Assembly (NCBI GenBank): GCA_963931165.1
Contig: OZ006985.1
Span: 207,900 to 271,899 of the forward strand
Length of the DNA: 64,000 bases
Direction: 5' to 3'
Source: an uncultured Christensenellaceae bacterium
GTDB taxonomy: Bacteria; Bacillota; Clostridia; Christensenellales; UBA3700
Both the position numbers and the translations under genes were made by a program. Positions 2,677 to 56,694 of the stretch are shown here, one piece after another; the stretch's first letter is position 1; each line of letters begins with the position of its first letter. Under the pieces are notes generated by a model. It was not told the DNA's origin, searched no databases, and saw nothing but the letters and a program-made list of their open reading frames with translations.

Positions 2677-2718
2677 AGCAACGGCTTTTCGCCGCGTATA
2701 ATTGTAGCATATTTTCTG

Positions 2719-2747
2719 TTGTAAGTAAAGCGCGGATATGCTAAAAT
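2719..2747 (+). promoter_or_regulatory. sigma-A-type promoter for the fumarate hydratase genes
   Basis: TTGTAA (2719-2724), 17 nt, TGcTAAAAT (-10 at 2742-2747), about 20 nt upstream of the RBS. Confidence 0.4.
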
Positions 2748-2768
2748 AATACGCGTAAGGAGATGACT

Positions 2769-3626
2769 ATGTTTACTGTCGACACCTCGACCGTCGCCGA
2801 AGAAGTACGCAAGGCGATCGTCGAAATCAGCCGCAACATCGAACCGACCTGCCTCGCCGCGCTCGAACGAGCCCGCGACGAAGAAAAGGTCCCCGCCGCG
2901 CGCTTCGCCCTGACCAAAATGTGCGAAAACGCGCGCTTCGCCGCCCAAACGGGCTATCCCGTCTGTCAGGACACCGGGATGTGCGTCGTCTTTGTCGAGA
3001 TCGGCAAAGACGTCCTTTTGACCGGAGCTCTGCTCCAAGACGCGATCGACGGCGCCGTCCGGGAAGGCTATGCCGACCTGCGCAAATCCGTGCTCGACCC
3101 CGTCACGCGCGTCAACACCGGCACCAACGCCCCGGCGGTCGTCCACACCGACTTCGTCCCCGGCGACGAGGTCAAGGTGAGCGTCATGCTCAAGGGCTTC
3201 GGCAGCGAGAATATGTCCGCGCTATACATGCTCAACCCCGCGCAGGGGCTGGATACGGCAAAAGATCTGATCGTAGAGACGGTCGCGCGCGCGGCGTCCA
3301 ATCCCTGCCCGCCGGTCATCGTCGGCGTGGGGCTGGGCGGCACGTTCGAGCTGTGCGCAAAGATGTCCAAACAGGCGCTGTTCCGCAAGATCGGCTCCTC
3401 CAATCCCGATCCTCAATTGGACGCGATCGAGCGTGAGCTCATGGAGAGGATCAACTCTCTCGGCGTGGGCGCGCAGGGCTTCGGCGGCAAGACGACCGCG
3501 CTCGGCATATTCATTCGCAAGTACCCGACCCACATCTCGTCGCTGCCCGTCGCGGTCAACATTTTGTGCCATTGCAGCCGCGCAAAGGTAGCCGTCATCG
3601 GCAAAGAGGGGGTGCGCTATGAGTGA
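2769..3626 (+). CDS. class I (Fe-S) fumarate hydratase, alpha subunit
   Basis: GYPVCQDTGMCVVFVEIG, GFGSENMS and VGVGLGGT motifs of the FumA/TtdA N-terminal family. ATG 2769 preferred over 2763 because AAGGAG (2757-2762) abuts 2763. Confidence 0.85.
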   Translation: MFTVDTSTVAEEVRKAIVEISRNIEPTCLAALERARDEEKVPAARFALTKMCENARFAAQTGYPVCQDTGMCVVFVEIGKDVLLTGALLQDAIDGAVREGYADLRKSVLDPVTRVNTGTNAPAVVHTDFVPGDEVKVSVMLKGFGSENMSALYMLNPAQGLDTAKDLIVETVARAASNPCPPVIVGVGLGGTFELCAKMSKQALFRKIGSSNPDPQLDAIERELMERINSLGVGAQGFGGKTTALGIFIRKYPTHISSLPVAVNILCHCSRAKVAVIGKEGVRYE

Positions 3627-4146
3627 AAAGAGATTGACCATGCCGTTTGACAAAAGCGAACTCGCGACGCTCAAAGTCGGCGACGGGGTCCTCCTGTCGG
3701 GGACTATGCTCGTCTTCCGCGACGCGGGACATAAGCGGCTGTTCGAGAGCATCCAAAGCGGCAAGCCCGACTTCGACTACGCCGGCGAGACCGTCTACTT
3801 CATGGGTCCGTGTCCCGCGGTCAAAGGTCAGGTGATGGGCAGCTGCGGTCCGACAACGTCGGGCAGAATGGACAAGTACACGCCCTATATGTTCGATCAC
3901 GGGCTCGCCGCCCAGATCGGCAAGGGCAAGCGCAGCCCCGAATGCATAGAGGCGATCAAGCGCAACAGGGGCGTCTACTTCGCCGCGATAGGCGGCGCGG
4001 GCGCGCTTTACAGCGGCACGGTGACCGCCGTCGAAGAGATCTGCTACCCCGACCTCGGCACCGAGGCGGTCAGGCGGATCACCGTCAAAGACTTCCCCGC
4101 GATCGTCGCGATCGACAGCAAAGGCAACTGCATTTACGCCGATTGA
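3619..4146 (+). CDS. class I fumarate hydratase, beta subunit
   Basis: LLSGTMLVFRDAGHKRL..YFMGPCP..GPTTSGRMDKY is the FumA C-terminal/TtdB family pattern. Overlaps the alpha subunit stop by 8 nt. Confidence 0.85.
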   Translation: MSEKRLTMPFDKSELATLKVGDGVLLSGTMLVFRDAGHKRLFESIQSGKPDFDYAGETVYFMGPCPAVKGQVMGSCGPTTSGRMDKYTPYMFDHGLAAQIGKGKRSPECIEAIKRNRGVYFAAIGGAGALYSGTVTAVEEICYPDLGTEAVRRITVKDFPAIVAIDSKGNCIYAD

Positions 4147-4158
4147 CGTACACAAAAA

Positions 4159-4187
4159 GGAGCGCTTCCGGGCGCTCCTTCTTTTTT
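4159..4187. terminator. bidirectional intrinsic terminator between convergent genes
   Basis: GGAGCGC-loop-GCGCTCC hairpin flanked by an A-run upstream and a T-run downstream. Confidence 0.6.
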
Positions 4188-4222
4188 GCTTAAATACGTT
4201 TTTCAAACACGGGCACGAAAAA

Positions 4223-4669
4223 TCAATACAGTTTGCCCTCAAAGAATTCCGTCATCAATTGACTGAACTTGACATCGTTGCAGGTCTTGAGATAGACATA
4301 GTATTGCACGCCGTCATACTCAAACCTCGCGTTGTAGTGGCGGCGCGAGAACGCGCCCTTGCGGTAGGTGTAGCTCAGCTCGCAGTCGCCGACCTTGACG
4401 CGCTTTGCGTTCTCAATCGCCGCCTCGTCGAACACCGACGGGTCGAGCAGCACATACTCGGTCAACTCGTGATTGCCGAACATGATCGAGAAGAACTCTT
4501 TGAGATAGACCGGCTTGCCGTCGCCGCCATACCCCGTCTCCGACTTCATGTCCGTCACGTCGCGCATCGCGAAGATCAGATATTTGGTGCCGTGCTCGGA
4601 GTTGTAATCGGCGATCGAGCTTGACTTGCGCTCTTTTACGCCCTTTGGCTTAAACAGCTTATTTGGCAT
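4223..4669 (-). CDS. hypothetical protein (148 aa)
   Basis: Clean ORF with non-shadow amino-acid composition. It overlaps the glnS stop by 11 nt. No family recognised. Confidence 0.5.
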   Translation of the reverse strand: MPNKLFKPKGVKERKSSSIADYNSEHGTKYLIFAMRDVTDMKSETGYGGDGKPVYLKEFFSIMFGNHELTEYVLLDPSVFDEAAIENAKRVKVGDCELSYTYRKGAFSRRHYNARFEYDGVQYYVYLKTCNDVKFSQLMTEFFEGKLY

Positions 4670-10534: not shown

Positions 10535-12048
<1,514 letters not shown>

Positions 12049-12206
12049 ATCTCTAACTCTTTCTCTCAAATTGACTTCGTGTAGTTTTTTGTACACTTAC
12101 TCTCTGAAAAGAAACAGTTTTTGTCACGTTTGTGCCTCAACCGTTCCCTTCCTTCCTATTCGCGTTTTCAATGTTCTCGCCGCCGCCTTTCCGCGACAGC
12201 CTTGTA

Positions 12207-12235
12207 ATTGTATCACAACGATATTTTGATGTCAA
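12207..12235 (-). promoter_or_regulatory. rRNA promoter with AT-rich UP-like region
   Basis: Minus strand reads TTGACA (12230-12235), 17 nt, TACAAT (12207-12212), preceded by A/T-rich sequence at 12236-12275. Confidence 0.6.
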
Positions 12236-12297
12236 TTGTTTTTTCTTTGAAAAATAAAGAAATTTAACTTTTTCGACAGCGCCGCCTCGGCGCCCTC

Positions 12298-13380
12298 TCA
12301 CAGGTCGTACTTTGAGTCTATCTCTCCGCCTCCGAGGCACACCTCTCCTTGATAGAGGGCGACATATTGCCCCTCGACGATCGCCCTTTGAGCGCGCTCG
12401 AACGCGACCTCGACACCGCCGCCCGGCAGTAGCCTCGCCCTCGCCGCCTGCAACGGCTGGCGATGGCGTATCCTCGCCATGCATTCGAACTCCTCGCCCT
12501 CGGGCTTCAACGAAATGAAATTGAAGTTTTCGCACATCAGCGCGTTGTGAAACAGCGACTCCTGACTTTGCGAGACATACAAGACGTTCTTCGCGACATC
12601 CTTGCCGACGACGAACCACCGCCCGTCGTCCGCGCCGTCCACTCCGCCGATACCCAGCCCTCTGCGCTGACCGAGCGTGTAGTAAAACACCCCTTCGTGT
12701 TCGCCCAAAAGGGCGCCGTCATCGCCCCTGATCTCCCCCTTTTGCATGGGAAGATACTCGGACAAAAACGCGCGGAAGTTGCGCTCGCCGATGAAACATA
12801 TCCCCGTGCTGTCCTTCTTTTTCGCGGTCGGGATGCCGAAGCTCTCGGCGAGTTCGCGCACCTGAGGTTTGAGCAGATGCCCGATCGGGAACAGCACGTT
12901 GTCGAGTTGCTCGCCCTTGACTTGATTGAGGAAGTAGGTCTGATCCTTGTTCTCGTCCGCGGCGCGGAGCAGCAGATTGAGCCCGTCGTCGTGAGCGATG
13001 CGGCAATAATGCCCCGTCGCGACAAAGTCCGCCCCCATCTCTCGCGCCTTGGCGACGAACGGTTCGAACTTGATCTCGCGGTTGCACAACACATCGGGAT
13101 TGGGCGTCCTGCCTTTGGCGTATTCGTCCAAAAACTTCTTGAATACGCGGTCGTAGTACTCGTCCGCAAAATCCACGCTGAAATAGGGTATGCCGAGCCC
13201 GTCGCAGACGCGCCTCACATCATAGAAGTCCTCATCCGCGGTACAATTGCCGCCCTCGTCCGTCTCATGCCAATTGCGCATGAACAGACCGATCACGTCA
13301 TAGCCCTGTTGTTTGAGGAGCGCGGCGGCGACAGAACTGTCCACGCCTCCGCTCATCCCCACCACTACCGTCTTTGCCAT
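12298..13380 (-). CDS. mnmA: tRNA 2-thiouridine(34) synthase MnmA
   Basis: MAKTVVVGMSGGVDSSVAAALL (PP-loop SGGxDS), ..ATGHY.., C-terminal barrel. Start at ATG 13378-13380. Confidence 0.93.
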   Translation of the reverse strand: MAKTVVVGMSGGVDSSVAAALLKQQGYDVIGLFMRNWHETDEGGNCTADEDFYDVRRVCDGLGIPYFSVDFADEYYDRVFKKFLDEYAKGRTPNPDVLCNREIKFEPFVAKAREMGADFVATGHYCRIAHDDGLNLLLRAADENKDQTYFLNQVKGEQLDNVLFPIGHLLKPQVRELAESFGIPTAKKKDSTGICFIGERNFRAFLSEYLPMQKGEIRGDDGALLGEHEGVFYYTLGQRRGLGIGGVDGADDGRWFVVGKDVAKNVLYVSQSQESLFHNALMCENFNFISLKPEGEEFECMARIRHRQPLQAARARLLPGGGVEVAFERAQRAIVEGQYVALYQGEVCLGGGEIDSKYDL

Positions 13381-13451
13381 ATCCGCATTATAACATATTC
13401 CGCGCAAACGGGCAAGAAAAACCGCGATCTCGCGCCGCCGAAACCCCGATA

Positions 13452-13480
13452 TTGACGTGCGCGCGCAAATATTGTATAAT
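13452..13480 (+). promoter_or_regulatory. promoter of the large lipoprotein gene
   Basis: TTGACG (13452-13457), 17 nt, TATAAT (13475-13480). Confidence 0.5.
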
Positions 13481-13537
13481 TATACTATAAATACGCTTTC
13501 GCGCTCCCTGTCGCCGAGCGATATGATAAGGTGAGAT

Positions 13538-16500
13538 ATGAAGTTTAGGAGAGTTTTGATCGTTGCGCTCGTCGCGCTCGTCCTGTTGAGCGCGGCGGCT
13601 TGCGTGACCGACGATGAAAAAGGCAAAGTCGAACCCGCGCAAAAGACGCAGCTGACCGCCGACATGATCACCGTCGGCGGAACATACAGCTATACCGGCG
13701 AACCCGTCTGCCCCGACCAAAGCGGAACCATCTCCGTCGTCGCAGACGGCAGTCACGTCGACGCGTCGCAATTCACCTACTCCTACTCCGACAACGTCAA
13801 CGCCGGCACCGCATCCGTCACGGTCACCGCAAAGGAATCTTGCACAAAAGTGACCGGCAGTGCGACCGCGCACTTCGAGATCGCGCCCGCGACAAAGACC
13901 TCAACCGACATCTCCGCTCTGCAAAGTCTGCTTGACGACCCCAATTACGGCATGATCTATTACGGCGGCGACGACGCGCTCGCCGCAAATTCCGTCCTCG
14001 CCGTCCCCGAGGGGAAGACGCTGCAATTGAACGACGGGCTGACCGTCAACGGCAAGCTGACCGTCGACGGCACTTTGATCGTCTACAACAACGGCAAACT
14101 GTTCGGGAGCGGATCTTTGACCAACAACGGCACGCTCGAACTGAGGCGCGGCGCACGGCTGTTCGCGCCGAGCGGCACGATCTCGGGAGACGGCGACGTC
14201 GTCAACGAGGGCACCGTCTACGTCAATTCCGCAACGAATATCGACGGCAGCGTGGTCGTGCGCCGCGACCTGTCCGATGCCGAAATATTTCTCCAATACC
14301 CCGAGCTGAAATACGATAAAGACATCGCCGAGTATACGCCGGGCAGGATAACGATCTCCCATCCCGACATCACCGGTACTGCCGACGGCGGCGGCTATTC
14401 CCCCGTCTATTCCGACAACGACGGCGTGGGCACCGCAACCGTAACTTTGAGCGCGCCTATCGACGACGAACGCTTTTTCGGTACCGCTTCGGCGACCTAT
14501 CGCATCGTCCCCGGCAACGTGACCGTCACATCGGTCGAGGACGCGCTCGACGCGCTTGCCGACGCCAATTACGGCGCCGTGCGGCTGATAGGACAGCAGC
14601 GTTATGCCGCCGACATCACCGTTCCCCAAGGCAAAACTTTGACGATCGCGTCAAGTCTTGATTGCACAGGCAAATTGACGAATCTCGGCACTCTGCAAGT
14701 CGAGGGAACGTTGATGACAGACGACTTCGACGCCGATCAAAATGCGCATATCATCAACACGGGTACGATTTTTTGCAATTGCGACTTTGTCTTTGATCCG
14801 ACCCGTACCGACAACGCAAAAGGCACGATCTACTCCTATTGCGCACAATCTCCGGACCTGCCGGGCGCGATCGAAAAGCACGACATCGCCGCCCCGTCGA
14901 CGGGCTTTGTCTTCGACCGGGCAACTCTGACTTACAACGGCGCCGCTCACGACATCTTCCCCGTCACCGCATTCGGCGCGATCGGAATACGCGACATTTC
15001 GGTCGGCTACTACCGCGACGGCAAGTCGACCAAAGACCTGACGTCCGTCGGCACGATAGAGGCGCGCTATTCCGTCGTCAAGAACTCGCGAAACGCCTAT
15101 CGCGGCAGCGCTTCCCTTTCGTTCGAGATAGTCTCCGGGACCGCAAGCGTGTCAAACCGCACCGCACTTAGCTCCGCATTGAGCGACCCCGGCTATTACC
15201 TCGTCACGATGACGGACGACATCACCGACATCGGCACCGTCCAAGTCCCCGAGGGAAAGACGCTCGACACCGGCGGAAATAAGCTGGAGTGCATCGACTT
15301 GATCAACTACGGAACCGTGCTCAACCCCTATGACGGAGACCTCTCCGACCCGTCCGCCGTAGGCGCGCTGATCAAGGCGGACAAGGTGACAAACTGCGGC
15401 AAGATCGTCAACGAAGGTATCATCGCTCTGTCGCCCCTGCAAGGCGCGTCGTGGCAGCAGCAAAGCGGCTCCGAATTCGTCAACGACGGCGTAGTATTTG
15501 TCAATGAAAACACCGAGGCCGCATTACCCGGCGATGTGCGCGTCCGCATATTCATCGACAATGTCGACATCGCACTCGAATACTCGTCGACAGACTATCA
15601 CGGCGGCGAAAAATGCCCGACGGTCACAGCAACAAAGGGCGACGCCTCAATCTCTGCGGACGATATGACCGTGATCTACGCCGACAACGTCTCTGCCGGA
15701 CAAGCGACGGTGACCGTCTCCGGAAAAGGCGGACCTTTCGCCGCGCTCGTCGGCTCGAAAACGCTCACCTTTGGGATAGAACGCGGCGCGACGACCGTGA
15801 GAGACAAGGCGTCTCTGCTCGCCGCCCTCGACGACGAAAATTGGCAGACTATCACCCTCGGCGCCGACATCGATGTCGAATCGACCTCCATCGAATTGCA
15901 CGAAAACACCACCGTCGCTTGCGAAGAATATATGCTCGTCACGGACGTCGATAACATCCCGTCCGTGCCCCAAACTTCAGCGATCACCGCGACCGCAACT
16001 TCGGTCGACAGGCTGAGCGCGCTGCTGTGCTCGGCGACATATATTACGCTCGGCAACGACTTGACCGGAAACATCATCAACGTCAAAGGGACGAAAACTC
16101 CCCTCGCCGTCACGCTCGACCTCGACGGCAAGAGCCTCGGCGCGGCGCTCTATCTCGACGGCGACGGCAACACGATCGATCTGACCGTCACAAACTCTTC
16201 GGAGACGCAAAGCTATCTCGCGGGCAACGCGTCCGCAACGGCGGCGGTCGTAATATCGGGAGATTCCAACCGCGATGTTACGCATTTGACGCTCGAGTCA
16301 ATAAACATAAACGGCATCGTCGTCGACGCGCCAAACGCTTCGGTCGATCTGACGGTCACGGGCTGCATCATCACGCAGGGCGCAAACGGCAGAGCGGTCG
16401 ATTTGAGCCGTCCGCAGTCCTCGGTTCAATCGCCGTTTGCCGCGACGTTCACCGACTGCACGATCTCGGGCGAAGAGGGCGTGTACGTCAACGCTCCGTC

Positions 16501-17027: not shown

Positions 17028-17057
17028 TTGACAAAGAATGCTTTCTCGTGCTAAACT
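17028..17057 (+). promoter_or_regulatory. putative promoter of the TIR-MTase/GNAT operon
   Basis: TTGACA (17028-17033), 18 nt, TGcTAAACT (-10 at 17052-17057), 16 nt before the ATG at 17074. Confidence 0.4.
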
Positions 17058-17073
17058 GAAATCGAGGAAAGTT

Positions 17074-18450
17074 ATGAATACAGATTACAATATTTTTCTA
17101 TGCTATCGAGGCGATAAAGGCGGCTGGCTCGCCTCGAATATCTATTCCGAACTAAAGCTCTACACAAAAGACAAGCTAAAGCTGTTCTTTGCGCCCAAAT
17201 GCATTGGGAAAGGTGAAAATTTCAAAATACGATGCGAAGCGGTTGCCGGCGACGTAAGTCTTATGATATTGATTTTATCTCCCGGATTTTTTGATGCATG
17301 CGGAGATCCCGACGACATTGTAATGTGCGAATTGCGTGCCGCACTTTCTAACGACAACACGAAGTTTTTGCCGATCATAATGCCTGGGTTCGACTTCAAA
17401 GACGTCGACCTGACAGTTCATTTCACCGATATCGAGATCGACAGAATAGGACATATCAACCCCATCAAGTACACAGACGTCTATTCTTTCAGCTCAACGG
17501 AATTGTTAGCTCCCATATTGCAGGATCGACTGGATTACAATGCGATCATAAAACCCATAGAAACCAAAAAGCGTTCTCACATCACCCATTCAAGAAGAAA
17601 TAAGCTTTTCTCCCAATCAAACACGACCGAAATCAATCGCTTGAAAGAACAGCAAAAACTGTTGCTTTCCTTTGATATGCCCGCATATGAAAAACTGCTT
17701 GCAGGCAAAAGCGATCTAAATGTGCTTGATCTCGGATGCGGCAACGGGACTGCCCTTATGAGCAGACTGGGGAACCGTCCGGAGGTGGGTAAAATAATAG
17801 GCATAGAGTTTGATGCGGACGCCGTCAATTATGCAAATACAAAATACGGAAGCGATACTGTTAAATTCTATGTGGGAGATCTCGAAAGCGATGATTTTGA
17901 AAATCTTCTCGAACGGATCATGGATGAAACTGACATCGAAAAGTTCGACTTCATCAACATGCTTGCTATTGTTTCTCACCTCAAATCCCCGTCCCGCCTA
18001 TTTAAGATTATTAAACGTTTTTGCAAAAAGGGAGCCGTTTTGCTCGTCAGGAACATCGACGACGGCATGAATATCTTTTTCCCCGATGATAATGATCGCT
18101 TTCGTCACGCATTGTCGCTACTCGCCCAATGCGAAGCCACAGGTTACAGATACTCCGGCAGAGAACTTTATACGATCATGGCAAGAAGGGGCTATAAAAA
18201 TATCACACTTGAACGTTGCGGACTGTCCACTGTCGGAATGTCATACGAAGAAAGGAGCGCCTTTTTTGACGTTATTTTCAAATTCATCAAACAGGGTATC
18301 AAAGCGGAGGCGGCAAACTCAGGCGATGCGAAATTGATCGCGGAAAAAGAATGGCTGGAAGAAGAATACGATGAAATGGAAGAAGAATTTCTTTCAAACG
18401 AGTTCTTTATGTTGTTCGGCTTCATCCTGTATACCGCAACGGTGAACTGA
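17074..18450 (+). CDS. TIR domain / class I SAM-dependent methyltransferase fusion protein (copy 1)
   Basis: N-terminus YNIFLCYRGDKGG..LILSPGFF..DDIVMCELRAAL is TIR-like, with Glu86 at 17329-17331. C-terminus has VLDLGCGNG (17722-17748), IGIEFD, FINMLAIVSHL, KKGAVLLVRNIDDG. AT-rich codon usage. Start at the ATG after an AGGAAA RBS. Confidence 0.75.
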   Translation: MNTDYNIFLCYRGDKGGWLASNIYSELKLYTKDKLKLFFAPKCIGKGENFKIRCEAVAGDVSLMILILSPGFFDACGDPDDIVMCELRAALSNDNTKFLPIIMPGFDFKDVDLTVHFTDIEIDRIGHINPIKYTDVYSFSSTELLAPILQDRLDYNAIIKPIETKKRSHITHSRRNKLFSQSNTTEINRLKEQQKLLLSFDMPAYEKLLAGKSDLNVLDLGCGNGTALMSRLGNRPEVGKIIGIEFDADAVNYANTKYGSDTVKFYVGDLESDDFENLLERIMDETDIEKFDFINMLAIVSHLKSPSRLFKIIKRFCKKGAVLLVRNIDDGMNIFFPDDNDRFRHALSLLAQCEATGYRYSGRELYTIMARRGYKNITLERCGLSTVGMSYEERSAFFDVIFKFIKQGIKAEAANSGDAKLIAEKEWLEEEYDEMEEEFLSNEFFMLFGFILYTATVN

Positions 18451-18451
18451 C

Positions 18452-18970
18452 ATGCAAGACAAATTCTTGATCAAAAAACTCGATTCGACCTATATATCGG
18501 CAATGCTTGATCTTCAAGACGAAGTGATAGGCAAACTCGACAATCCCGACATATTAAGAAAAAACACGATCGACACCCTATCTCCTTGTTTCGATCCGCC
18601 GTCTCTTGTGCTCGGAGCATTCTGCGATGATCTGTTTGTTGCGTTCGGCATTCTCTATTATGCCGGCGATGATCATGAAAACCTTGCATACTCTCTTGAT
18701 AAGCACAACGACCTCTACTCATATGCCAATATTAAAGTCGTGATTGTAAAAGACGGTTATCGCGGACACGGTCTACAACAAACATTTATACGCAACTTTG
18801 AAGAATATGCCAAAACCATCGGAGTAAAAACATTGCTTTCGACCGTATCACCCGACAATATGTACAGCTGTCGCAATTTGGAACAATGCGGATACATATC
18901 GGTGAAGCGTCTGAAAAAATATGGCGGCAAAGATCGCTTGCTTTACATGAGAAACTTAGGGGAACATTGA
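18452..18970 (+). CDS. GNAT-family N-acetyltransferase
   Basis: VIVKDGYRGHGLQQTFIRNFEEYAK (R/Q-x-x-G-x-G/A acetyl-CoA loop), 172 aa. The ATG is 1 nt after the upstream TGA. Confidence 0.75.
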   Translation: MQDKFLIKKLDSTYISAMLDLQDEVIGKLDNPDILRKNTIDTLSPCFDPPSLVLGAFCDDLFVAFGILYYAGDDHENLAYSLDKHNDLYSYANIKVVIVKDGYRGHGLQQTFIRNFEEYAKTIGVKTLLSTVSPDNMYSCRNLEQCGYISVKRLKKYGGKDRLLYMRNLGEH

Positions 18971-19089
18971 TCCCCTTCTTCTCGTTCACTCTTCTTTCGG
19001 CAATGAGCAATGGTTCTCCCGTATGACCGTATACCTTGCGCAGCCGGTTTTGACGTGTTTGCCCGTATATCCGTTGCTTATTTGACAAG

Positions 19090-19842
19090 CTAAAACGAGC
19101 CTATGCCGTACGACGTCCCTTTCGGCAGCAACTGCGGCAATATCTCGCGGTATCTGCCCTCTTCGGACGGGTCGGTCAAGATCAGATCGACGTGCGGCGC
19201 GCCGTGCAATTCGCACGTCCGCGCGATACGGGACGCAACGCCATCCGCACCGTCAAAGACGGGACAGCAAAAGCGCTTTGAGATGAATTCGGCAAGATAG
19301 GAGTAGTGCGTGCACCCGATCACGACCGCGCCCAAGTCCGCGCGCGGATACGCCGACAGGATGCGCTCCGCCTCCGCCTTTGCGCGTTTGAGGTCGGGCA
19401 GCCCATACTCGACAAGATGAGCAAGGCGCGAACAATCGGGAGTGTTGACCTTTGCTCCGCTCGCTTTGAGCAATGCGGCAAAGCGCGGCTGTTTGAGCGT
19501 CAGCGGCGTCGCCATCACCGTCAACTTGTCATACCTCGCCGCCGCAGGCTTGATCGCCGGCTCGGTACCGACAAATTCTATGTCGGAAAACTCGGCGCGC
19601 AATTCGTCAATGCAGACTGCGGTCGCCGTGTTGCACGCGAGCACGATCGTCTTTGCCCCCAAGTCTTTGAGCCGCGCACAATTGGCGCGCATAACATTTT
19701 GCAGCCACAGTTCGGACAAGCGTCCGTAAGGTGCATGAGCGTTGTCGGCAAAATATAATATTTTTCCTGCCCGTGTGCGTTCAAGCAACTTTTTGACGAC
19801 GAATAGTCCGCCCATGCCCGAGTCGGTGACCGCTATATCCAT
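19090..19842 (-). CDS. murI: glutamate racemase
   Basis: IAVTDSGMGGL..VLACNTATA..VIGCTHY, with both catalytic Cys motifs. Confidence 0.92.
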   Translation of the reverse strand: MDIAVTDSGMGGLFVVKKLLERTRAGKILYFADNAHAPYGRLSELWLQNVMRANCARLKDLGAKTIVLACNTATAVCIDELRAEFSDIEFVGTEPAIKPAAARYDKLTVMATPLTLKQPRFAALLKASGAKVNTPDCSRLAHLVEYGLPDLKRAKAEAERILSAYPRADLGAVVIGCTHYSYLAEFISKRFCCPVFDGADGVASRIARTCELHGAPHVDLILTDPSEEGRYREILPQLLPKGTSYGIGSF

Positions 19843-19875
19843 ACCATAATACTATGCGCGAGCTACGGCGCGTTT

Positions 19876-20583
19876 TCATGAATACGCGGCAAAAATCGCT
19901 GCGGCGATCGTATTTGCGCACTCGCCGACAACGCTTTCGGCGTCGTAGGGAATGACGCTCCTTTGCCCCTCCGTCGTGTCGACGGCGCAGATCAGAGGCA
20001 CTCCGACCGCGAGCACTCGCGTCCCGATGTAGTCGCCGTCGATGCACTTTCCGCCCGCGCCCGTTCCGCTCCCGGGGCGGATCCCTGCCGTCGTCAATTG
20101 ATAGCACGCGCCTATCTTGCGCCAATCCGTCGTCGCGAGCGCGTCCGCGGCGATCACGAGATCGGGCTTGACGGCGCCCGCAAGAGAGGCGATCACGTCC
20201 GCGGAGTCCACTCCCGTCACCGACCTGACTTCGGGCAGCACGGTCAAAAACGCGCCGTTTCTGTCCAGCCGCCTCAAAGCATTCACAGCATCTGCGCCGA
20301 ACGCGTCGGAGACAAAAGACGAATTGCCAAGCCCCGCGACCAACACCTTTGCGCCTCGCGCAAGCCGCCTCATCGCATAGGCGAGCGCACGCGCCGCGGC
20401 GCTTCCCGTCACGGTACAATAGTCGCCCTCTCTTCGGCTCAGCGCCCTTGCCGCAGCCTCGTCGATGTGCGAAAAGCGCAACTCACAGCCGTACTTCTTC
20501 TCCAACCGCGAGATGTACCCGCCGCGCCATGCGGCGGCGTCCGAAAGCAGGTCCGAACCGTCCGATATCAAAAATTTTTCCAT
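19876..20583 (-). CDS. gpr: GPR-type spore (germination) protease-like peptidase, short form
   Basis: VLVAGLGNSSFVSDAFG..KPDLVIAADALA..QLTTAGIRPGSGTG..LAVGVPLI matches the A25 peptidase blocks. It sits next to rpsT, as gpr does in Bacillus. Shorter than the canonical ~370 aa. Confidence 0.55.
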   Translation of the reverse strand: MEKFLISDGSDLLSDAAAWRGGYISRLEKKYGCELRFSHIDEAAARALSRREGDYCTVTGSAAARALAYAMRRLARGAKVLVAGLGNSSFVSDAFGADAVNALRRLDRNGAFLTVLPEVRSVTGVDSADVIASLAGAVKPDLVIAADALATTDWRKIGACYQLTTAGIRPGSGTGAGGKCIDGDYIGTRVLAVGVPLICAVDTTEGQRSVIPYDAESVVGECANTIAAAIFAAYS

Positions 20584-20710
20584 ATCAAGAGCATTGACAC
20601 AAAGCGGCAAAACGATAGCGTTTGCGGCGCTTTTTACTCATATTTGCTCCCGCGGACGCGACTTTGGCGCTCAAAAGCGCAAAAATACTCAAAAAAGCGC
20701 GTGCATTTTA

Positions 20711-20739
20711 TTGCTTTATGGGCGCAAGTGTGCTAAAAT
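20711..20739 (+). promoter_or_regulatory. rpsT promoter
   Basis: TTGCTT (20711-20716), 17 nt, TGcTAAAAT (-10 at 20734-20739). Confidence 0.5.
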
Positions 20740-20770
20740 GTTTTAGCAAATACGAAAACGGAGGGAACCT

Positions 20771-21043
20771 ATGCCTAACATTAAGTCCCAGAAAAAGAGA
20801 GTCGGCATCTCCGCCAAAGAGAACGAGATCAACGTCGCGAAGCGCAGCAGAGTCCGCGGCGCGATAAAGAAGTTCCAGGCGGCTGTCGAGGCGAAGGATT
20901 TCGAGAATGCGGAGAAGCTTCTGCGTGAGGCGATCTCTTTGATCGACTGCGCGAAGAACGACGGCATCTACAAGGCAGAGACGGCAAGCAGGAAGATCGG
21001 CAGACTTTCCAAGCAGCTGGACAAAGCGAAGAAAGCCGAGTGA
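20771..21043 (+). CDS. rpsT: 30S ribosomal protein S20
   Basis: MPNIKSQKKRVGISAKENEINVAKRS..KAETASRKIGRLSKQL. Confidence 0.95.
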   Translation: MPNIKSQKKRVGISAKENEINVAKRSRVRGAIKKFQAAVEAKDFENAEKLLREAISLIDCAKNDGIYKAETASRKIGRLSKQLDKAKKAE

Positions 21044-21062
21044 TTTGAACGAACGAAGTTCG

Positions 21063-21085
21063 GCGCGCCGTAAGGCGCGCTTTTT
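21063..21085 (+). terminator. intrinsic terminator (first of a tandem pair)
   Basis: GCGCGCC-gtaa-GGCGCGC followed by T5. Confidence 0.7.
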
Positions 21086-21095
21086 ATTAAGTTCG

Positions 21096-21121
21096 GTGCG
21101 CCGCAAGGCGCGCTTTTTTTG
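21096..21121 (+). terminator. intrinsic terminator (second, duplicated copy)
   Basis: GTGCGCC-gcaa-GGCGCGC followed by T8. The 30-nt unit AAGTTCGG(C/T)GCGCCG(T/C)AAGGCGCGCTTTTT is directly repeated. Confidence 0.7.
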
Positions 21122-21323
21122 TCGATCTTCGCTTTGCCGGTTTGATCGGCGTTTGCGGCGTTTGCTCAAACTCCAAGCCCGCAACGCCTTCCCCGACACG
21201 CATATCTTTACATTGTGTTTCGGCTTTCAAAGCGCAGCCGTTGAAAGTGCGGCGGACGAGACAAAGATGGTCCCGTCCGCCGCGTCATTTGAAAAAAGCG
21301 GCTCCCTTTCGGAGCCGCGCATT

Positions 21324-22295
21324 TTATCTCCAAAGCACTTCGAGCGTCTTGCGGTCGAGCACTCCCCATCTGCCGTCCTCGCGGACGATCGCCCTGCCGT
21401 CCTCGAACGGCGTCGCGACGTCGAACCTGAGCGACACCGCCTCTTCGCCCTGTTTGTCGATGTAGCCCGACTTCTCGCCGACGGTGACGGACGCAAGCCC
21501 GTCGCTGAACGAAGTCGCCGAATCAAATTTGAAGTCGATGACGACGTCGCCCTTCTTGTCGATATATCCGAGTTTGCCGTCCCTCTCCACGCAGGCGAGA
21601 TCTTCGGAGAACTCAAAGGCGTCGTCGTAATCGGGCTGTATGACGACGTTGCCCTTGCGGTCGCGGTAGCCCCACTTGCCCTTGCGGTTGAACTTGACGA
21701 TCGCGTCCGGCGGCAGCGGCTCGCGTTGCGGCTTTTCGACGACGGGCGCAGGCTCGCGCTTGCCGTAAACGATCTCGTAAAGGCTCATGCCGGCATACGG
21801 GTCGCGCTCCTTGCGCTGTTGCTTGCTCTTGCCGTCGCGACGGTCGTTTTTGTCCCTGCGGTCGTCGCGGCTATCTTTGCGGTCTTTGCCGCATTCGCCG
21901 CCCTGCCTCTTTTCATCGCGCTTTGCGCCGCTCTGCGCCTGTTCGGGCTGACGGCGGTCGCGCTTGCCTTCGGGACGAGCGTCGCGGACGGGCTTTTCGC
22001 CCTGCCCCTGCGCGGGCTGCTCGTCGTCGGGACGGAAGTCAAGCCCCAGCTTGGTAAGAGCGCCCTTGACCTCAAAGCATTGTTTTTTGCCTATGTTTTG
22101 GATGCGATACATCTCGCGCATACGGCGCGCCGCAAGATCGCGCGCAGTCGCTATGCCGCCCTTTGCGAGCAATTCCGCGGTGCGTTCGGACAATCCGAGC
22201 TCCCCGAGCGGAGTCGAAAGCGCCTTTTCGTCGCCGACCGGCGTATATTCGTCGCGCTGTTTGCGCGGGCGATTGTGTTTGAAATTTTTTCCCAT
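21324..22295 (-). CDS. RpoA-CTD-like helix-hairpin-helix / basic linker / WG-repeat protein
   Basis: N-terminus LGELGLSERTAELLAKGGIATARDLA..MYRIQNIGKKQCFEVKGAL resembles the RNA polymerase alpha CTD. C-terminus has KWGYRDRKGNVVIQPDYDDA, KLGYIDKKGDVVIDFKFDSA, KSGYIDKQGEE, GRWGVLD (WG/KWG repeats). Start at MGKNFKH (22293-22295). Confidence 0.7.
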   Translation of the reverse strand: MGKNFKHNRPRKQRDEYTPVGDEKALSTPLGELGLSERTAELLAKGGIATARDLAARRMREMYRIQNIGKKQCFEVKGALTKLGLDFRPDDEQPAQGQGEKPVRDARPEGKRDRRQPEQAQSGAKRDEKRQGGECGKDRKDSRDDRRDKNDRRDGKSKQQRKERDPYAGMSLYEIVYGKREPAPVVEKPQREPLPPDAIVKFNRKGKWGYRDRKGNVVIQPDYDDAFEFSEDLACVERDGKLGYIDKKGDVVIDFKFDSATSFSDGLASVTVGEKSGYIDKQGEEAVSLRFDVATPFEDGRAIVREDGRWGVLDRKTLEVLWR

Positions 22296-22531
22296 ATCGT
22301 TATTATACCACCGAGCGGGCAAAATGGCAACCTCTCGCGCGTGTATGAGCGCTCCGAGCGAGTCGATTTGGGGCGCATGCGGCAAAGTATTGCGCGATTT
22401 TCGCGCGCGCATATAAAAATGTATATAATTTTGAAAACATATATAAAAAGTGTTTACAAATGCCGCGCGAATGCATATAATACTACACGCAAAGACCGAC
22501 ACGTCTCAGCATATGAAAAGAGGTATGAATT

Positions 22532-23044
22532 ATGGCAAAGTATAAGAGATGCCCCCGCTGCGAACTCAATTGGATCCCCGAAGAAGAGGAATATTGCGAC
22601 GTCTGCAAGGCGGAGTTGAAGATCGGCGGCGCCAGCCTCCTCGAAGACGAAGAGGAAGAATTGTGCCCCATCTGCCACGTCAACTATCTCGAACCGGGCG
22701 AAAAGATATGCTCCTATTGCGCGCAGAAAAACCCGGACAAAGCCGATGACGACGAGCACGTCTACAACATCGACGACACCGATCGCTCGGAAGAAGACCT
22801 CGAAAAGGTCTCGTTCGACGAGCTTGCCGAAGAGGAAAGCTGGGCAGACTATGACGAGCCGTTCGACGACAACGAGAACTTCGACGACGCCGACTATGCC
22901 GACGACGAAGAAGATGACGAAGATGAAGAGGAAGAACAGTTCAAAGACGACATAGAGGACGACTTCGACTATGACATCGACAGCGTCGAGGATATCGACG
23001 AGGACGAAGAAGAGGACGAAGACCCCGGCAACGACGAAGATTGA
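22532..23044 (+). CDS. double zinc-ribbon protein with strongly acidic tail
   Basis: CPRC..CDVC and CPIC..CSYC pairs, followed by about 100 aa of D/E-rich sequence. Confidence 0.6.
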   Translation: MAKYKRCPRCELNWIPEEEEYCDVCKAELKIGGASLLEDEEEELCPICHVNYLEPGEKICSYCAQKNPDKADDDEHVYNIDDTDRSEEDLEKVSFDELAEEESWADYDEPFDDNENFDDADYADDEEDDEDEEEEQFKDDIEDDFDYDIDSVEDIDEDEEEDEDPGNDED

Positions 23045-23084
23045 CATGCCGCCCTGCGTTTAGCGGGGCGATTTTTCCAAATTT

Positions 23085-23735
23085 ATGACGATAGCCGTTT
23101 GCATAAATAACGAAAACATCGCCGACCTGATCAAAGGTCTGATGAGCGCCACCCTTCCCGACGCGCAGTTCGAGAAATATGACGCTCAAACTTTGCCATA
23201 CTTTTCCGGCACGATCTCGATGGTGCTGTGCGACGCGGAGTCGCTGTTGCACATATGGCAAAACGACAAACTCCGCGCCCACTATCTGCCGAGCAATCCG
23301 ATCGCGATGATCGTCAACATCAACGGCAAACCCGAAATATTTTACAAATCGTACACAAGCCAAGGCTTGAGAACGCTTGGCATGAAGCGCATCGGCGCCG
23401 AACCGTCGCCGATGATACCGCTGTTCCACTCTCTCGCCGAGATCACCGAAGACGGCAAGTCGGACGACTATTTTCTCTATACGGGCGGAAGTTCCGGCGG
23501 CGGTCAATTCGCGGTCCGCTACGGCGACGACACCTTGATCGCGCAATATGCCGACAATGTCAAAAGCGGTTCGCGCACCATCATTTCAGTCGCCGGAGAG
23601 CGCCGCATAGGCAGACTTCGCCTGCACAAAGACGGCGTGTCGATCGAAGGAAAATTCTACTCCTATCAAGAGTGTGAGACATTGCCGCTCTACATAATCG
23701 CACGCATCCAAAAGGTACTCAAAGGGCGCAATTGA
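23085..23735 (+). CDS. hypothetical protein (216 aa)
   Basis: Clean ORF with ordinary composition. No family recognised. Confidence 0.5.
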   Translation: MTIAVCINNENIADLIKGLMSATLPDAQFEKYDAQTLPYFSGTISMVLCDAESLLHIWQNDKLRAHYLPSNPIAMIVNINGKPEIFYKSYTSQGLRTLGMKRIGAEPSPMIPLFHSLAEITEDGKSDDYFLYTGGSSGGGQFAVRYGDDTLIAQYADNVKSGSRTIISVAGERRIGRLRLHKDGVSIEGKFYSYQECETLPLYIIARIQKVLKGRN

Positions 23736-23754
23736 ACTTAAAAGCGTAAAATTG

Positions 23755-23784
23755 TTGCCCTCTCTTTGCAAGTTTTGATATAAT
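23755..23784 (+). promoter_or_regulatory. putative promoter of TIR-MTase copy 2
   Basis: TTGCCC (23755-23760), 18 nt, TATAAT (23779-23784). RBS GAGGGA lies before ATG 23812. Confidence 0.4.
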
Positions 23785-23811
23785 TATAACATTAAACGAT
23801 GAGGGAACATT

Positions 23812-25107
23812 ATGTCTTTGACCGATCATGAATACGACTTCTTTATAAGTTATTCCAATGCAGATACCGACCCGGTCTCTTCCATTGTCGAGAGTTTGGA
23901 AAATGATTACAAAGCAAAATGCTGGTTTCAAGAAAAAGATTCCAAAGCCGAATTCATTGATGAAATCATGTCAGGGATCGAAAACTCGAAAGTGTTTATT
24001 CTGTTCATAAGCGAACACTCTGCAAACTCCTATTTTGTTTTGAACGAGATCAATCATGCAACCGAATGGCGCTGCCAAAAAGAAGACTATAAAATCATAC
24101 CGATCATAATCGACAAAACAAAGCAAGATGTTGCCGATGCGGCATACAAAAGAGTACGCTTCTATTTGGGTAGATTGAACATACTGAATGCCAATACTTT
24201 TGACTCCATAGACTCTTTGATATTGAAAATATTCGAGCAAGCGGAAATCGACTTGCCTGATAGATCTTTGCATAAAAGTCTATATCATTCGAGCGAAAGT
24301 GAAAACGCACGGCTTTGCGCTCAAAACGAAATACTCCGCAACTTTTCATCGGAATTTTTTACTAAATACACTACGCCCGATTCCTACATCCTTGATATCG
24401 GATGCGCCTCGGGGGAAAATATTATCCTAAGATTGGAAGGCATAGCTTATACCGCTCTGCTTGGATTGGATATTGACGAAAAACAAGTAGAATGCGCAAC
24501 CAATCGTTTTGGCGACAATAAAAACACTTTTCTCAAATGCGACGTCATGTCCCCCGAGCTGGATGATATTTTGGAAGACTACATGGAGCGAAACGATATT
24601 ATCGGTTTTGATGTGATCCACATTTCCGCGGTTCTGTTGCACTTGGACGATCCGCTCGACTTATTGCGACGTCTCCGCAGATATTTGAAAAAAACCGGAG
24701 TCTTGTTCATACAAGATGAGGACGACGGAGCCAATATCGTATATCCAAATTCCAAATTTTTCAATCGTGCATTTGAAATATGGGCAGATTCCGAAGAAAG
24801 CGGCGACAGGTTCTGCGGAAGGAAAATACCCTCCTATTTGTCGGCTGCCGGATATAAATATTGTAATTTGGCAAAGTGCGGAGTTTCAAACACTGCGCTC
24901 TCAAAAGATCAGCATTCGGCATTGTGGGACATTTATTTCAATTATCATCTTTGGCTTGCCGTTGAAGAAAATATGTTTCGCAATCCAAACAAAACCGCTA
25001 AGCTGTTGAACGATTATATCGCCGAATACGACACTTACAAAAAAGCCTACGATAACGGCGAGATATTTATTCAATTGGGATTCATGTTTTTCCTGGCAAG
25101 AAAATAA
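23812..25107 (+). CDS. TIR domain / class I SAM-dependent methyltransferase fusion protein (copy 2)
   Basis: N-terminus YDFFISYSNADTD..CWFQEKD..SKVFILFISEHSANSYFVLNEINHA (TIR_2-like, Glu79 at 24046-24048). C-terminus has ILDIGCASGEN, LGLDID, VIHISAVLLHL, KKTGVLFIQDEDDG. AT-rich. Confidence 0.78.
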   Translation: MSLTDHEYDFFISYSNADTDPVSSIVESLENDYKAKCWFQEKDSKAEFIDEIMSGIENSKVFILFISEHSANSYFVLNEINHATEWRCQKEDYKIIPIIIDKTKQDVADAAYKRVRFYLGRLNILNANTFDSIDSLILKIFEQAEIDLPDRSLHKSLYHSSESENARLCAQNEILRNFSSEFFTKYTTPDSYILDIGCASGENIILRLEGIAYTALLGLDIDEKQVECATNRFGDNKNTFLKCDVMSPELDDILEDYMERNDIIGFDVIHISAVLLHLDDPLDLLRRLRRYLKKTGVLFIQDEDDGANIVYPNSKFFNRAFEIWADSEESGDRFCGRKIPSYLSAAGYKYCNLAKCGVSNTALSKDQHSALWDIYFNYHLWLAVEENMFRNPNKTAKLLNDYIAEYDTYKKAYDNGEIFIQLGFMFFLARK

Positions 25108-25340
25108 TGCCATTACAATACAATTTTCCTGCCCGTGTCTGTTATCGATGTCAATGTGCGCGGAGTTTGCTTCTGTTCATCTCCTGTGAGCACGCATTCC
25201 CAATTGCCGACGAGTCGCTTTGATCGTCTGCCCGCCGTATAGAACGCGGCGTCTCTCCCCCGTCGTCCAAGCAAATTTTAGCATCGCGCGGCGGCGATGT
25301 CAAATGCTTATTTTTTATGTCCCATCATACTTCGCGGGCA

Positions 25341-25365
25341 TAAAAAACGCGCCCGAAGGCGCGTC
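25341..25365 (-). terminator. gpmI intrinsic terminator
   Basis: Minus strand reads GACGCGCC-ttcg-GGCGCGT followed by T6. Confidence 0.7.
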
Positions 25366-25382
25366 CTTTGTCGTTGGTTTTG

Positions 25383-26918
25383 TCACTTCACGAGCAGCGA
25401 ATGCCCGGTCATCTCGGACGGGATCGCGAGCCCCATCGCGTCGAGCATGGTCGGGGCGATGTCGCACAGCCTGCCGCCGTCGGCAAGCGCCTTGACGCCG
25501 TCGACGCCGATCGCGATGAACGGCACGGGGTTGGTCGTGTGCGCGGTGAACGGAGTGCCGTCCGCGTCGAACATGTGATCGCAGTTTCCGTGATCGGCGG
25601 TGACGAATGCCTGTCCGCCTACGGACAAGATCGCGTCGACGACCTTTTGAACGCACTCGTCGGTGACCTCGACCGCCTTTTTCGCCGCTTCCATGACGCC
25701 GGTGTGACCGACCATGTCACAATTTGCGAAGTTGAGGATCATCACGCCGTACTTGCCGCTCTTTATCTCCTCGACAGCCCTGTCGGCGACCTCGTACGCG
25801 CTCATCTCGGGCTTCATATCGAATGTCGCGATCTTGGGGGACGGGATGAGGATGCGATCTTCGCCCTCGTTCGGCGCCTCGACGCCGCCGTTGAAGAAGA
25901 AGGTGACGTGCGCATACTTTTGCGTCTCCGCGATGCGGAATTGCTTTATGCCCTGCTTGGCAAGATATTCGCCGAGCGTGTTGGTGTAGCTCTCGGGGCG
26001 GAACGCGACGTCGAGCGCGTCGTTGAAGGTCACGTCGTATTGAGTGAACGACACGAAGTGCGGCGCGAGGAACCCCTTCGCCCTCGGGAAGGACGCGAAG
26101 TCGGGATAGATGAACGAACGGGTGATCTGACGCGCGCGGTCGGGACGGAAGTTGAAGAAGACGACGCTGTCGCCCTCGTCGACCGTCGCGACGGGCTTGC
26201 CGCCGTCCGTAAGCACGGTCGGGATCACAAACTCGTCGGTCACGCCCTTGTCATAGCTGTTTTGCATCGCCTCGATAGGGTCGCTCTCCTCTATGCCTTT
26301 GCCGTCGACGAGCGCTTCGTATGCCTTTTGGACCCTGTCCCAAATGTTGTCGCGGTCCATCGCGTAGAATCTGCCCGAGATCGTCGCGATCTTGCCGAAG
26401 CCGAGTTTGTCCAAATGCGCTTGAAGCTGTTCGATGTAGCCCTTGCCGCTCTCGGGAGGGGTGTCCCTGCCGTCCATAAAGCAGTGGATGTAGACGTTGT
26501 CCAGCCCGCGTCTTTTCGCCATCTCGACCAGCGCGAACAGGTGGGTGATGTGGCTGTGCACGCCTCCGTCGGAGACAAGCCCCATCACATGCAGCTTTTT
26601 GCCGTCCCTCTTGGCGTCGTCCATCGCCTTGACGAGCGCGGGATTGGTGAAAAAGTCGCCGTCCTCGATCGCCTTGGTGATGCGGGTGAGTTCTTGATAG
26701 ATGACCCTGCCGGCACCGATATTGAGGTGACCGACCTCGCTGTTGCCCATCTGTCCTTCGGGAAGACCGACCGCAAGCCCGCTCGCCTTGAGCCGAGTGG
26801 AGGGATATTTGTCCTGCATCGCGATCACTCGCGGAGAAGTCTCGGGCGAGATCGCGTTGTCGGGACCGTACGGAGCGATGCCGTAGCCGTCCATGATGAT
26901 AAGTCCTGTGAATTTCAT
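25383..26918 (-). CDS. gpmI: 2,3-bisphosphoglycerate-independent phosphoglycerate mutase
   Basis: LIIMDGYG..GNSEVGHLNIGAGR..VSDGGVHSH..TADHGN, 511 aa. Confidence 0.95.
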   Translation of the reverse strand: MKFTGLIIMDGYGIAPYGPDNAISPETSPRVIAMQDKYPSTRLKASGLAVGLPEGQMGNSEVGHLNIGAGRVIYQELTRITKAIEDGDFFTNPALVKAMDDAKRDGKKLHVMGLVSDGGVHSHITHLFALVEMAKRRGLDNVYIHCFMDGRDTPPESGKGYIEQLQAHLDKLGFGKIATISGRFYAMDRDNIWDRVQKAYEALVDGKGIEESDPIEAMQNSYDKGVTDEFVIPTVLTDGGKPVATVDEGDSVVFFNFRPDRARQITRSFIYPDFASFPRAKGFLAPHFVSFTQYDVTFNDALDVAFRPESYTNTLGEYLAKQGIKQFRIAETQKYAHVTFFFNGGVEAPNEGEDRILIPSPKIATFDMKPEMSAYEVADRAVEEIKSGKYGVMILNFANCDMVGHTGVMEAAKKAVEVTDECVQKVVDAILSVGGQAFVTADHGNCDHMFDADGTPFTAHTTNPVPFIAIGVDGVKALADGGRLCDIAPTMLDAMGLAIPSEMTGHSLLVK

Positions 26919-56593: not shown

Positions 56594-56607
56594 AGTATCA
56601 CTGTCAT

Positions 56608-56694
56608 GCGGACATGGCGGAATTGGCAGACGCGTAAGATTCAGGTTCTTATGGTCGAAAGGCTGTGCAGGTTCAAGTCCTGTTGTCCGCACCA
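56608..56694 (+). tRNA. tRNA-Leu (anticodon CAG)
   Basis: Hand-folded cloverleaf: acceptor GCGGACA/TGTCCGC, anticodon stem TAAGA/TCTTA with loop TTCAGGT, long variable arm, T-loop GGTTCAAGTCC, encoded CCA. Confidence 0.9.

Follow-up and report, generated by a model that had tools for sequence, protein, structure and literature searches.

What does a TIR domain do when it is fused to a methyltransferase and directly followed by the gene of an acetyltransferase of the GNAT family? The question is raised by a two-gene cassette in a window of 64,000 nucleotides (the whole stretch of DNA analysed here, positions 207,900 to 271,899 of the forward strand of contig OZ006985.1, assembly GCA_963931165.1) from an uncultured Christensenellaceae bacterium; coordinates below are those of the window, and the features of the cassette lie on the + strand. 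The first gene (17074–18450) encodes a 458-aa fusion of a TIR domain and a class I S-adenosylmethionine (SAM)-dependent methyltransferase, identified from homologues, domain matches and an AlphaFold2 (AF2) model, and the second (18452–18970) a dedicated GNAT acetyltransferase of 172 aa; a single base separates the TGA of the fusion gene (18448–18450) from the ATG of the GNAT gene. Homologous cassettes were found in many gut Clostridia, and the methyltransferase module is a constant unit that carries interchangeable heads. Tentatively, we favour a conflict or immunity role as the best single reading of these data: the cassette may be a conflict module of an anti-phage, abortive-infection or addiction-like kind. 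The fusion and its GNAT partner had been noticed in a sequence-only reading of the window, whose statements on the open reading frame, the motifs, the Glu86 codon, motif I, the gene junction, the base composition and the flanking genes all proved correct, and whose three-part anatomy was borne out by Pfam, PDB profile comparisons and AF2/Foldseek. The motifs concerned are, along the 458-aa protein, YNIFLCYRGDKGG, LMILILSPGFF, DDIVMCELRAAL, VLDLGCGNG, IGIEFD, FINMLAIVSHL and KKGAVLLVRNIDDG.

The TIR domain covers residues 1 to ~153 (17074–17532). Scanned at full length against Pfam, the protein gave no TIR match; its N-terminal 180 aa scanned alone matched TIR_2 at 21.4–21.8 bits (E ~3e-4 to 3.7e-4), below the gathering cut-off of 28. 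Of 22 orthologous N-domains, 20 matched TIR_2 as well (E<=0.01), with no match to any other family. A profile of the N-domain compared with the PDB retrieved TIR chains only, namely SARM1 and Caenorhabditis elegans TIR-1 (E ~5e-4) and, weakly, TcpB, and SARM1 was also the best sequence match (phmmer E 0.002). Because the Foldseek results for the whole protein were dominated by methyltransferases, a separate AF2 model of the N-domain was built, with a predicted local distance difference test (pLDDT) score of 87.8 and a predicted template modelling score (pTM) of 0.85. Its top 50 Foldseek matches in the PDB were all TIR domains: the SARM1 TIR (template modelling (TM) score 0.7–0.8, 26% identity) was followed by AbTir, the SPARTA TIR-APAZ protein, TcpB/BtpA, PdTIR and animal TIRs. 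In this model the N-domain has the flavodoxin-like beta-alpha fold of TIR domains. The protein itself does not reach the gathering score of TIR_2; the TIR call made from the letters alone is confirmed by the orthologues, the PDB profile comparison and the predicted fold.

Glu86 (codon 17329–17331), which the sequence-only reading had placed at the position of the catalytic glutamate, shows no variation in alignments of 35 and of 88 homologues, and it aligns with the glutamate of SARM1 'VHKEI', the catalytic E642. The N-domain also shares with SARM1 and TIR-1 the 'FxxYR' motif of the N-terminal strand; in contrast to these, the bacterial protein has no ARM or SAM domains, and its partner is a methyltransferase. 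TIR domains can be toxic NADases, as in SARM1 and in bacterial TIR effectors. By this likeness, the SARM1-like head with its kept glutamate would most likely cleave NAD+ or a related nucleotide and act as an NAD+-consuming effector.

The methyltransferase module (residues 176–458, 17599–18447) starts with an N-terminal ExxRLxxQ helix and ends in a C-terminal cap. Five Pfam families matched the C-terminal part above their gathering scores, with E-values from 1.8e-14 to 8.9e-8: Methyltransf_23 (54.2 bits), Methyltransf_31 (53.6), Methyltransf_11 (35.9), Methyltransf_12 (33.5) and Methyltransf_25 (33.2). Foldseek matched many SAM-dependent methyltransferases (E down to 6e-15), the best being 3mgg (TM 0.74–0.77), and a profile of the module found the same structure at E 4e-16 over 198 positions. 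This Methanosarcina mazei protein, from structural genomics and with Methyltransf_11/23/31 matches, is a true homologue of the module: both have the ExxRL helix, a D-x-G after strand 5 and a G..GR..Y segment, whereas 3mgg stands alone, with no TIR or GNAT partner, and Foldseek aligns the two at 21–23% identity. Further structural or sequence neighbours (JHAMT, LahSb, TleD, RebM, BamL and PEAMT) are small-molecule or peptide methyltransferases. In the orthologue alignments, L218, D219 and G221 of the SAM-binding motif I (VLDLGCGNG, 17722–17748) are invariant and N224 and G225 are present in at least 90% of sequences; conservation extends to the acidic residues that follow strands 2 and 3 (E/D245 and D269) and to a family signature, RNIDDG (R326–G331, 18049–18066), in which R326, D329, D330 and G331 are invariant. 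The AF2 model of the full-length protein (mean pLDDT 87.7, pTM 0.63) predicts two domains with confidence and, between them, a stretch of low pLDDT at residues ~153–180, which indicates a flexible linker of ~25–30 aa and not of ~70 aa as had been estimated.

The 172-aa partner scored 27 bits with Acetyltransf_1, above the cut-off of 20.7. Its family aligns with 57% mean column identity, and in the acetyl-CoA loop RGHGLQQ no member departs from R104, G105 and Q109, and at least 90% of members have G107; the motifs LRRNT, ENLA, TVSPxN and KYGG are proper to this subfamily. Searches with the GNAT protein returned 22 relatives only, several of which appear to adjoin TIR-methyltransferase genes. 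Its best matches outside the subfamily were weak: ArsN1, Sat3/Sat4, PAT and RimI (NCBIfam, E 4e-5 to 0.07) and PDB 3pp9 (E 0.05). The GNAT fold and acetyl-CoA loop are common to the partner and to RimI and the N-acetyltransferases of amino-acid-like antibiotics (ArsN1, Sat3/Sat4, PAT), while its scores lie far below the cut-offs of those families. The NCBIfam scan gave no match to a toxin family. In the long-read assembly of one strain (L066), the loss of one base in an A-run truncates the GNAT gene; this is probably a sequencing error, and we discarded the loss as evidence on essentiality.

How widely is the cassette conserved? A protein search with the fusion returned 118 relatives, of which ~110 are full-length fusions (46–97% identity); those with source names come from metagenome-assembled genomes (MAGs) of Clostridia and are annotated by NCBI merely as 'class I SAM-dependent methyltransferase'. 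In species-representative genomes, 51 loci were found by a scan. Orthologues occur in Christensenellaceae, Candidatus Stercoripulliclostridium, Ornithoclostridium, Alloclostridium and similar gut MAGs of the Christensenellales type, and more distant loci in the scan were matched through the methyltransferase part only, nearly all with an N-terminal TIR domain of another subtype. The next gene downstream is the GNAT in 33 of the 35 orthologous loci that could be assessed; most gaps are <=15 nt, and some of the gene pairs overlap. The TIR-methyltransferase-GNAT arrangement is thus conserved. Two orthologues (L005 and L059) are TIR-methyltransferase genes without any GNAT, as are the paralogs. 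One member of the family, with a methyltransferase module of 41% identity, lies at 2100–3482 of a contig assigned to a methanogenic gut archaeon, of Candidatus Methanomethylophilaceae (L043), which could be an inter-domain transfer or a binning artefact.

Beyond the orthologues, an exhaustive profile search with the methyltransferase module returned 708 representatives at E<=1e-10, of which 336 reached E<=1e-30, each representative standing for a cluster at 50% identity, and the best 148 were classified by architecture. TIR-methyltransferase is the commonest architecture, TIR_2 being matched in 72 of the 93 representatives of >=380 aa among these 148. Other heads and partners are joined to the same module. 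In one representative (P0144) it is fused to a deaminase, with dCMP_cyt_deam_1 at 54.8 bits and a MafB19-type deaminase at 40.8 bits. In about eight (P0171, P0180, P0196, P0242, P0256, P0257, P0271 and P0280) the head is a helical domain of 160 aa in which an Rx4H motif is invariant; it is probably a HEPN domain, to judge from its sequence. Seven (P0228, P0235, P0243, P0249, P0250, P0270 and P0282; 469–534 aa) are methyltransferase-GNAT fusions, with Acetyltransf_1 above the cut-off in the two that were scanned singly. The GNAT domain of these fusions ends in a zinc-ribbon-like CPxCxGRCxCDA and belongs to a subfamily other than that of the GNAT in the window; since it gives no BLASTP match to the latter, the two associations of methyltransferase and GNAT look independent and not orthologous. 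The SAM-binding residues D219, G221, G225, E/D245, D269 and D292 and the signature residues E186, R189, D330, P337, D338 and R359 are kept in ~76–100% per architecture class, and D330 in 93–100% in every class. In every architecture, therefore, the module is an enzyme or at the least binds SAM; it is not a decayed scaffold. The size of this family and the joining of the module to deaminase, HEPN-like and GNAT domains go beyond the sequence-only reading, as does a second copy of the fusion in the window itself.

This second TIR-methyltransferase gene (23812–25107, +), of 431 aa, lies 4.8 kb from the cassette in an AT-rich islet of its own (G+C content (GC) 0.41) and has no GNAT partner. Its methyltransferase module shares 28% identity with the one in the cassette over 285 aa (E 7e-30), Methyltransf families of Pfam are matched here too, and its TIR domain is canonical, matching TIR_2 at 65.7 bits (E 7e-18), TIR and ThsB_TIR (27 bits). 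Upstream of the paralog, a 170-aa protein with a double zinc ribbon (DZR, E 5.7e-5) and a very acidic tail (22532–23044, +) and a 216-aa protein without a family match (23085–23735, +) are encoded; both were rejected as conserved partners of TIR-methyltransferases, as among the fetched loci they are confined to this species. Repertoires of TIR genes are found elsewhere as well: of 32 loci examined, 4 have additional TIR genes at a distance of up to 10 kb from the cassette. One locus (L077) has two TIR-methyltransferase genes, another (L001) three TIR genes and a third (L016) an adjacent TIR gene. TIR proteins without the methyltransferase module are encoded a few kb from the cassette at 3162–4538 (-) and 13977–15278 (+) of L001 and at 11924–14947 (+) of L016; among these neighbours, one TIR is fused to a NagB/Pgl-like domain ('ILPTGRSA') and another protein, of ~1000 aa, directly follows the GNAT. 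In these Clostridia, TIR seems to be joined to enzyme-like domains repeatedly.

The chromosomal site of the cassette varies by lineage: it was found at rnpA-yidD-yidC, between Fe-hydrogenase and spoIVA genes, at glnA/murC/spoVG, beside citrate synthase and a LacI regulator and, in the window, beside murI. Here its flanks encode a 1089-aa protein with a lipoprotein signal peptide on one side and MurI (Asp_Glu_race, E 1.6e-15) on the other. Across ~16.8–19.0 kb the GC is 0.41–0.44, with flanks at 0.55–0.63. An identical MurI is encoded on 16 contigs, all 16 of which carry the cassette, so no empty site was available for comparison. A strain of the same species (L067), aligned to positions 18177–25836 of the window, is 99–100% identical over 18.8–25.2 kb; leftwards from ~18.8 kb the identity falls to 82–93%, with the breakpoint inside the GNAT gene. 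Within the species, as this one strain shows, the allele of the cassette has therefore been subject to replacement.

A conflict role draws mainly on four of these observations: the swapping of toxin-type heads on the methyltransferase module, the paralog repertoires, the variable sites and the allele replacement between strains. The low GC of the cassette in this genome also counts in its favour. TIR, MafB19-like deaminases and HEPN are typical effector heads of prokaryotic conflict systems, and we regard the exchange of heads, with deaminase, HEPN-like and GNAT domains joined to one module, as the strongest argument for such a role, albeit an indirect one. A defence function is plausible on these grounds. 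As to mechanism, the methyltransferase and the GNAT may both act on one shared small ligand; this is proposed because the two activities are linked twice and independently, by fusion and by operon, which is evidence of the Rosetta-stone type. Binding or turnover of the ligand at the methyltransferase module would control the assembly and activity of the TIR head, and the part of the GNAT would be to restrain the ligand, or the system, as long as the cell is uninfected.

Several observations weigh against this interpretation. The genomic neighbourhood is not that of a defence island, contrary to what might have been expected of accessory immune genes: in a survey of the two nearest open reading frames per side at 36 loci, with PADLOC and Pfam, the 117 neighbouring proteins comprised one AbiEi/AbiEii pair and a few generic PADLOC matches, and their Pfam families were mostly housekeeping ones. 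Synteny conserved within sub-clades (hydrogenase-cassette-SpoIVA in 5 loci) suggests vertical inheritance, and in most genomes the GC of the cassette equals that of its flanks (host range 0.32–0.58). The sequence-only reading had taken the AT-rich islet for acquired accessory DNA; the dip is real in the window genome (0.43 for the cassette against ~0.60), where it fits a recent transfer into the lineage, and it is the exception among hosts whose composition the cassette otherwise matches. No member of the family was found in phage, plasmid or IMG/VR collections, which gave generic methyltransferase matches only. No PADLOC system model matched, and none spans the full-length protein, the matches being at the level of domains; that no system would be called had been anticipated. 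Further points concern the protein itself. SARM1 has a tryptophan four residues before its catalytic glutamate (DWVHKE); in this clade, Ile or Val takes that place (DDIVMCE), so the putative NADase activity is not assured, and substrate or activity may differ. The matches of the Rx4H head to HEPN, HEPN_Swt1, Hypoth_Ymh and RiboL-PSP-HEPN are subthreshold (E 0.006–0.06), and a profile of this head found no HEPN match in the PDB. Stand-alone methyltransferases of 271–329 aa with no extra domain make up 38 of the best 148 representatives; because such forms are common and the catalytic residues are kept, the module resembles an enzyme with a job of its own and not a sensor.

Among described systems, the locus would act most like the fused TIR effectors of CBASS, SPARTA, Avs or Thoeris, by analogy of domains, and it is a member of none of them. 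CBASS TIR-SAVED and TIR-STING, SPARTA TIR-APAZ, TIR-NLR/Avs and Thoeris ThsB have in common with it the logic of an enzymatic TIR head joined to a ligand- or partner-binding module, whereas the partner here is an intact class I SAM-methyltransferase plus a GNAT. As the sequence-only reading had stated, no ThsA-like, cyclase, Argonaute or STING gene lies near the cassette in the window; nor does a SAVED or NTPase partner, and cyclases, Argonautes, ThsA, SAVED and NTPases are equally lacking among the 117 neighbours. We rejected Thoeris on the lack of a ThsA-like gene in the window vicinity and in the neighbour survey and on the lack of a match between the fusion and any PADLOC ThsB model; CBASS, Pycsar and SPARTA were rejected as no CD-NTase, pyrimidine cyclase or short Argonaute was found in the same two sets. 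The paralog in the window has domain-level matches to the PADLOC ThsB, TIR-NLR and SAVED-TIR models. The sole PADLOC model matched by the fusion protein is Mad2 of the methylation-associated defence system MADS (E 1.8e-11), a predicted N6 DNA methylase (10.1101/2023.03.30.534895). Kinship with Mad2 beyond the Rossmann core was rejected, since the match covers ~120 generic residues and the (D/N)PP(Y/F) amino-methylase motif is absent; none of the seven other mad genes forms a system at the locus. A description of a TIR-methyltransferase fusion was not found in the literature searched, in agreement with the claim that none had been described; an earlier mention in a comparative-genomics supplement is possible, and subscription journals lay largely outside the coverage. 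What appears to be new, on sequence evidence, is a set of TIR-effector proteins with an enzymatically intact-looking methyltransferase partner and a GNAT; fusions of TIR to new domains are unsurprising in themselves.

The rival that survives best, which we think somewhat unlikely, is a three-enzyme pathway in which the TIR domain, as an ADP-ribosyl transferase or cyclase like ThsB, makes an NAD-derived product and the methyltransferase and GNAT tailor that product or its acceptor; the outcome would be a signal or antimetabolite and not simple depletion of NAD+. The conservation of all three sets of catalytic or cofactor motifs agrees with it, as does the stable inheritance of the cassette among housekeeping genes in many lineages. 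The small-molecule and peptide methyltransferases around the module in structure space, and the amino-acid-like antibiotics handled by the enzymes nearest, if weakly, to the GNAT (ArsN1, Sat, PAT), point in the same direction, and the fusions and the operonic pairing suggest that both enzymes share a substrate. Such a pathway would leave unexplained the TIR-methyltransferase paralog clades that have no GNAT, and a module with a deaminase or probable HEPN head is hard to fit to the tailoring of a TIR product; moreover, no receptor or effector for the product is conserved beside the cassette.

The cassette could also be outside conflict altogether, with the methyltransferase and GNAT performing an ordinary metabolic or regulatory modification and the TIR either serving oligomerisation or regulation or hydrolysing nucleotides in normal NAD or nucleotide metabolism. 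Housekeeping neighbours, sub-clade synteny and a GC that matches the host in most genomes are what such a pair would show; stand-alone homologues of the methyltransferase, including the archaeal 3mgg, are common, and the plain NCBI label of the members would be apt. We nevertheless consider this distinctly unlikely: the invariance of Glu86 argues for catalysis over a scaffold role, and the exchange of TIR with a toxin-type (MafB19-like) deaminase and a probable HEPN, a swap typical of conflict systems, the several diverged paralogs in single genomes, the recombination hotspot at the cassette among strains and the different chromosomal sites in different lineages all speak against an ordinary pair of enzymes.

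Least probable, and in our view quite improbable, is an addiction module of the toxin-antitoxin kind, in which a TIR-methyltransferase toxin is neutralised, itself or in its product, by the co-translated GNAT and persists by post-segregational killing: the tight two-gene operon (1-nt spacing here, gaps of <=15 nt in most loci), the variable sites, the allele replacement in one strain and the potential toxicity of TIR NADases would suit it, whereas three TIR-methyltransferase clades (the paralogs and the L005 and L059 orthologues) have no GNAT, the GNAT lies downstream and is enzyme-like instead of a small DNA-binding antitoxin, and the collections of plasmids and phages searched did not contain the cassette. 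The converse arrangement, a type II system with a GNAT toxin like TacT or AtaT, was rejected too, the sole conserved partner of the GNAT being the 458-aa fusion, with no ribbon-helix-helix (RHH)/DUF1778 antitoxin.

Upstream of the two genes lies a sigma-70-like motif, TTGACA-18-TAAACT with a TG before the -10 (17028–17057, +), which had been read as the promoter of the operon; it is a consensus match only (10/12), present and aptly placed, and such sites are no commoner in the sequence than in shuffles (2 found against 4.6 expected), so that it is a plausible promoter by its position. A ribosome-binding site, GAGGAAAG (17064–17071, +), read directly from the sequence, ends 2 nt before the ATG at 17074. 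The list of open reading frames gives a 470-aa frame from 17038, in which this ATG is in frame and opens the 458-aa protein; because the promoter motif lies inside the longer frame and GAGGAAAG stands 2 bases upstream, the ATG at 17074 is the likely start, and the N-termini of homologues agree with it. A weak terminator-like hairpin of 6 pairs with a T-rich tail (18958–18976, +; consensus match only) overlaps the stop codon of the GNAT gene. A search for riboswitches or other RNAs upstream of the cassette and within 16–26 kb found none, and a search of the flanks for direct or inverted repeats that an insertion might have left gave short, chance-level matches only.

No tRNA adjoins the islet of the cassette. 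The two tRNAs of the window border an unrelated islet at 56.6–59.5 kb, the third AT-rich one (~56600–59570, GC 0.37), which lies between tRNA-Leu (56608–56694) and tRNA-Arg (59489–59565), contains a membrane-like 274-aa open reading frame (57334–58158, -) and one of 115 aa (58400–58747, -), and looks like a separate integration hotspot without relation to TIR. Between the cassette and the paralog, a 392-aa open reading frame (21324–22502, -) has a long, highly charged middle region rich in Arg, Asp and Lys; RNA polymerase alpha CTD and WG_beta_rep families were matched in the identical gene of another locus (L063).

As enzymes, TIR domains have a central place in the immunity of bacteria, plants and animals, and to our knowledge every new partner module of TIR has to date brought to light a new trigger or a new signal derived from NAD. 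We judge it rather unlikely that the cassette holds new TIR chemistry, such as a methylated and/or acetylated NAD-derived signal or antiviral metabolite (for example an adenosine diphosphate ribose conjugate), or an infection sensor built from a SAM-dependent enzyme. If the sensor version were true, an active SAM-dependent enzyme would couple the turnover of a methyl donor or ligand to the destruction of NAD+ and would have been reused with deaminase and HEPN heads. Were the small-molecule pathway to apply instead, new modified NAD-derived metabolites would be predicted. If the cassette is an immune module, as the conflict reading that we tentatively favour has it, it would link methyl-donor or acetyl-CoA chemistry to NAD+ depletion and would define a sizeable uncharacterised family of at least 336 clusters at 50% identity, concentrated in the poorly studied gut Clostridia of the Christensenellales.

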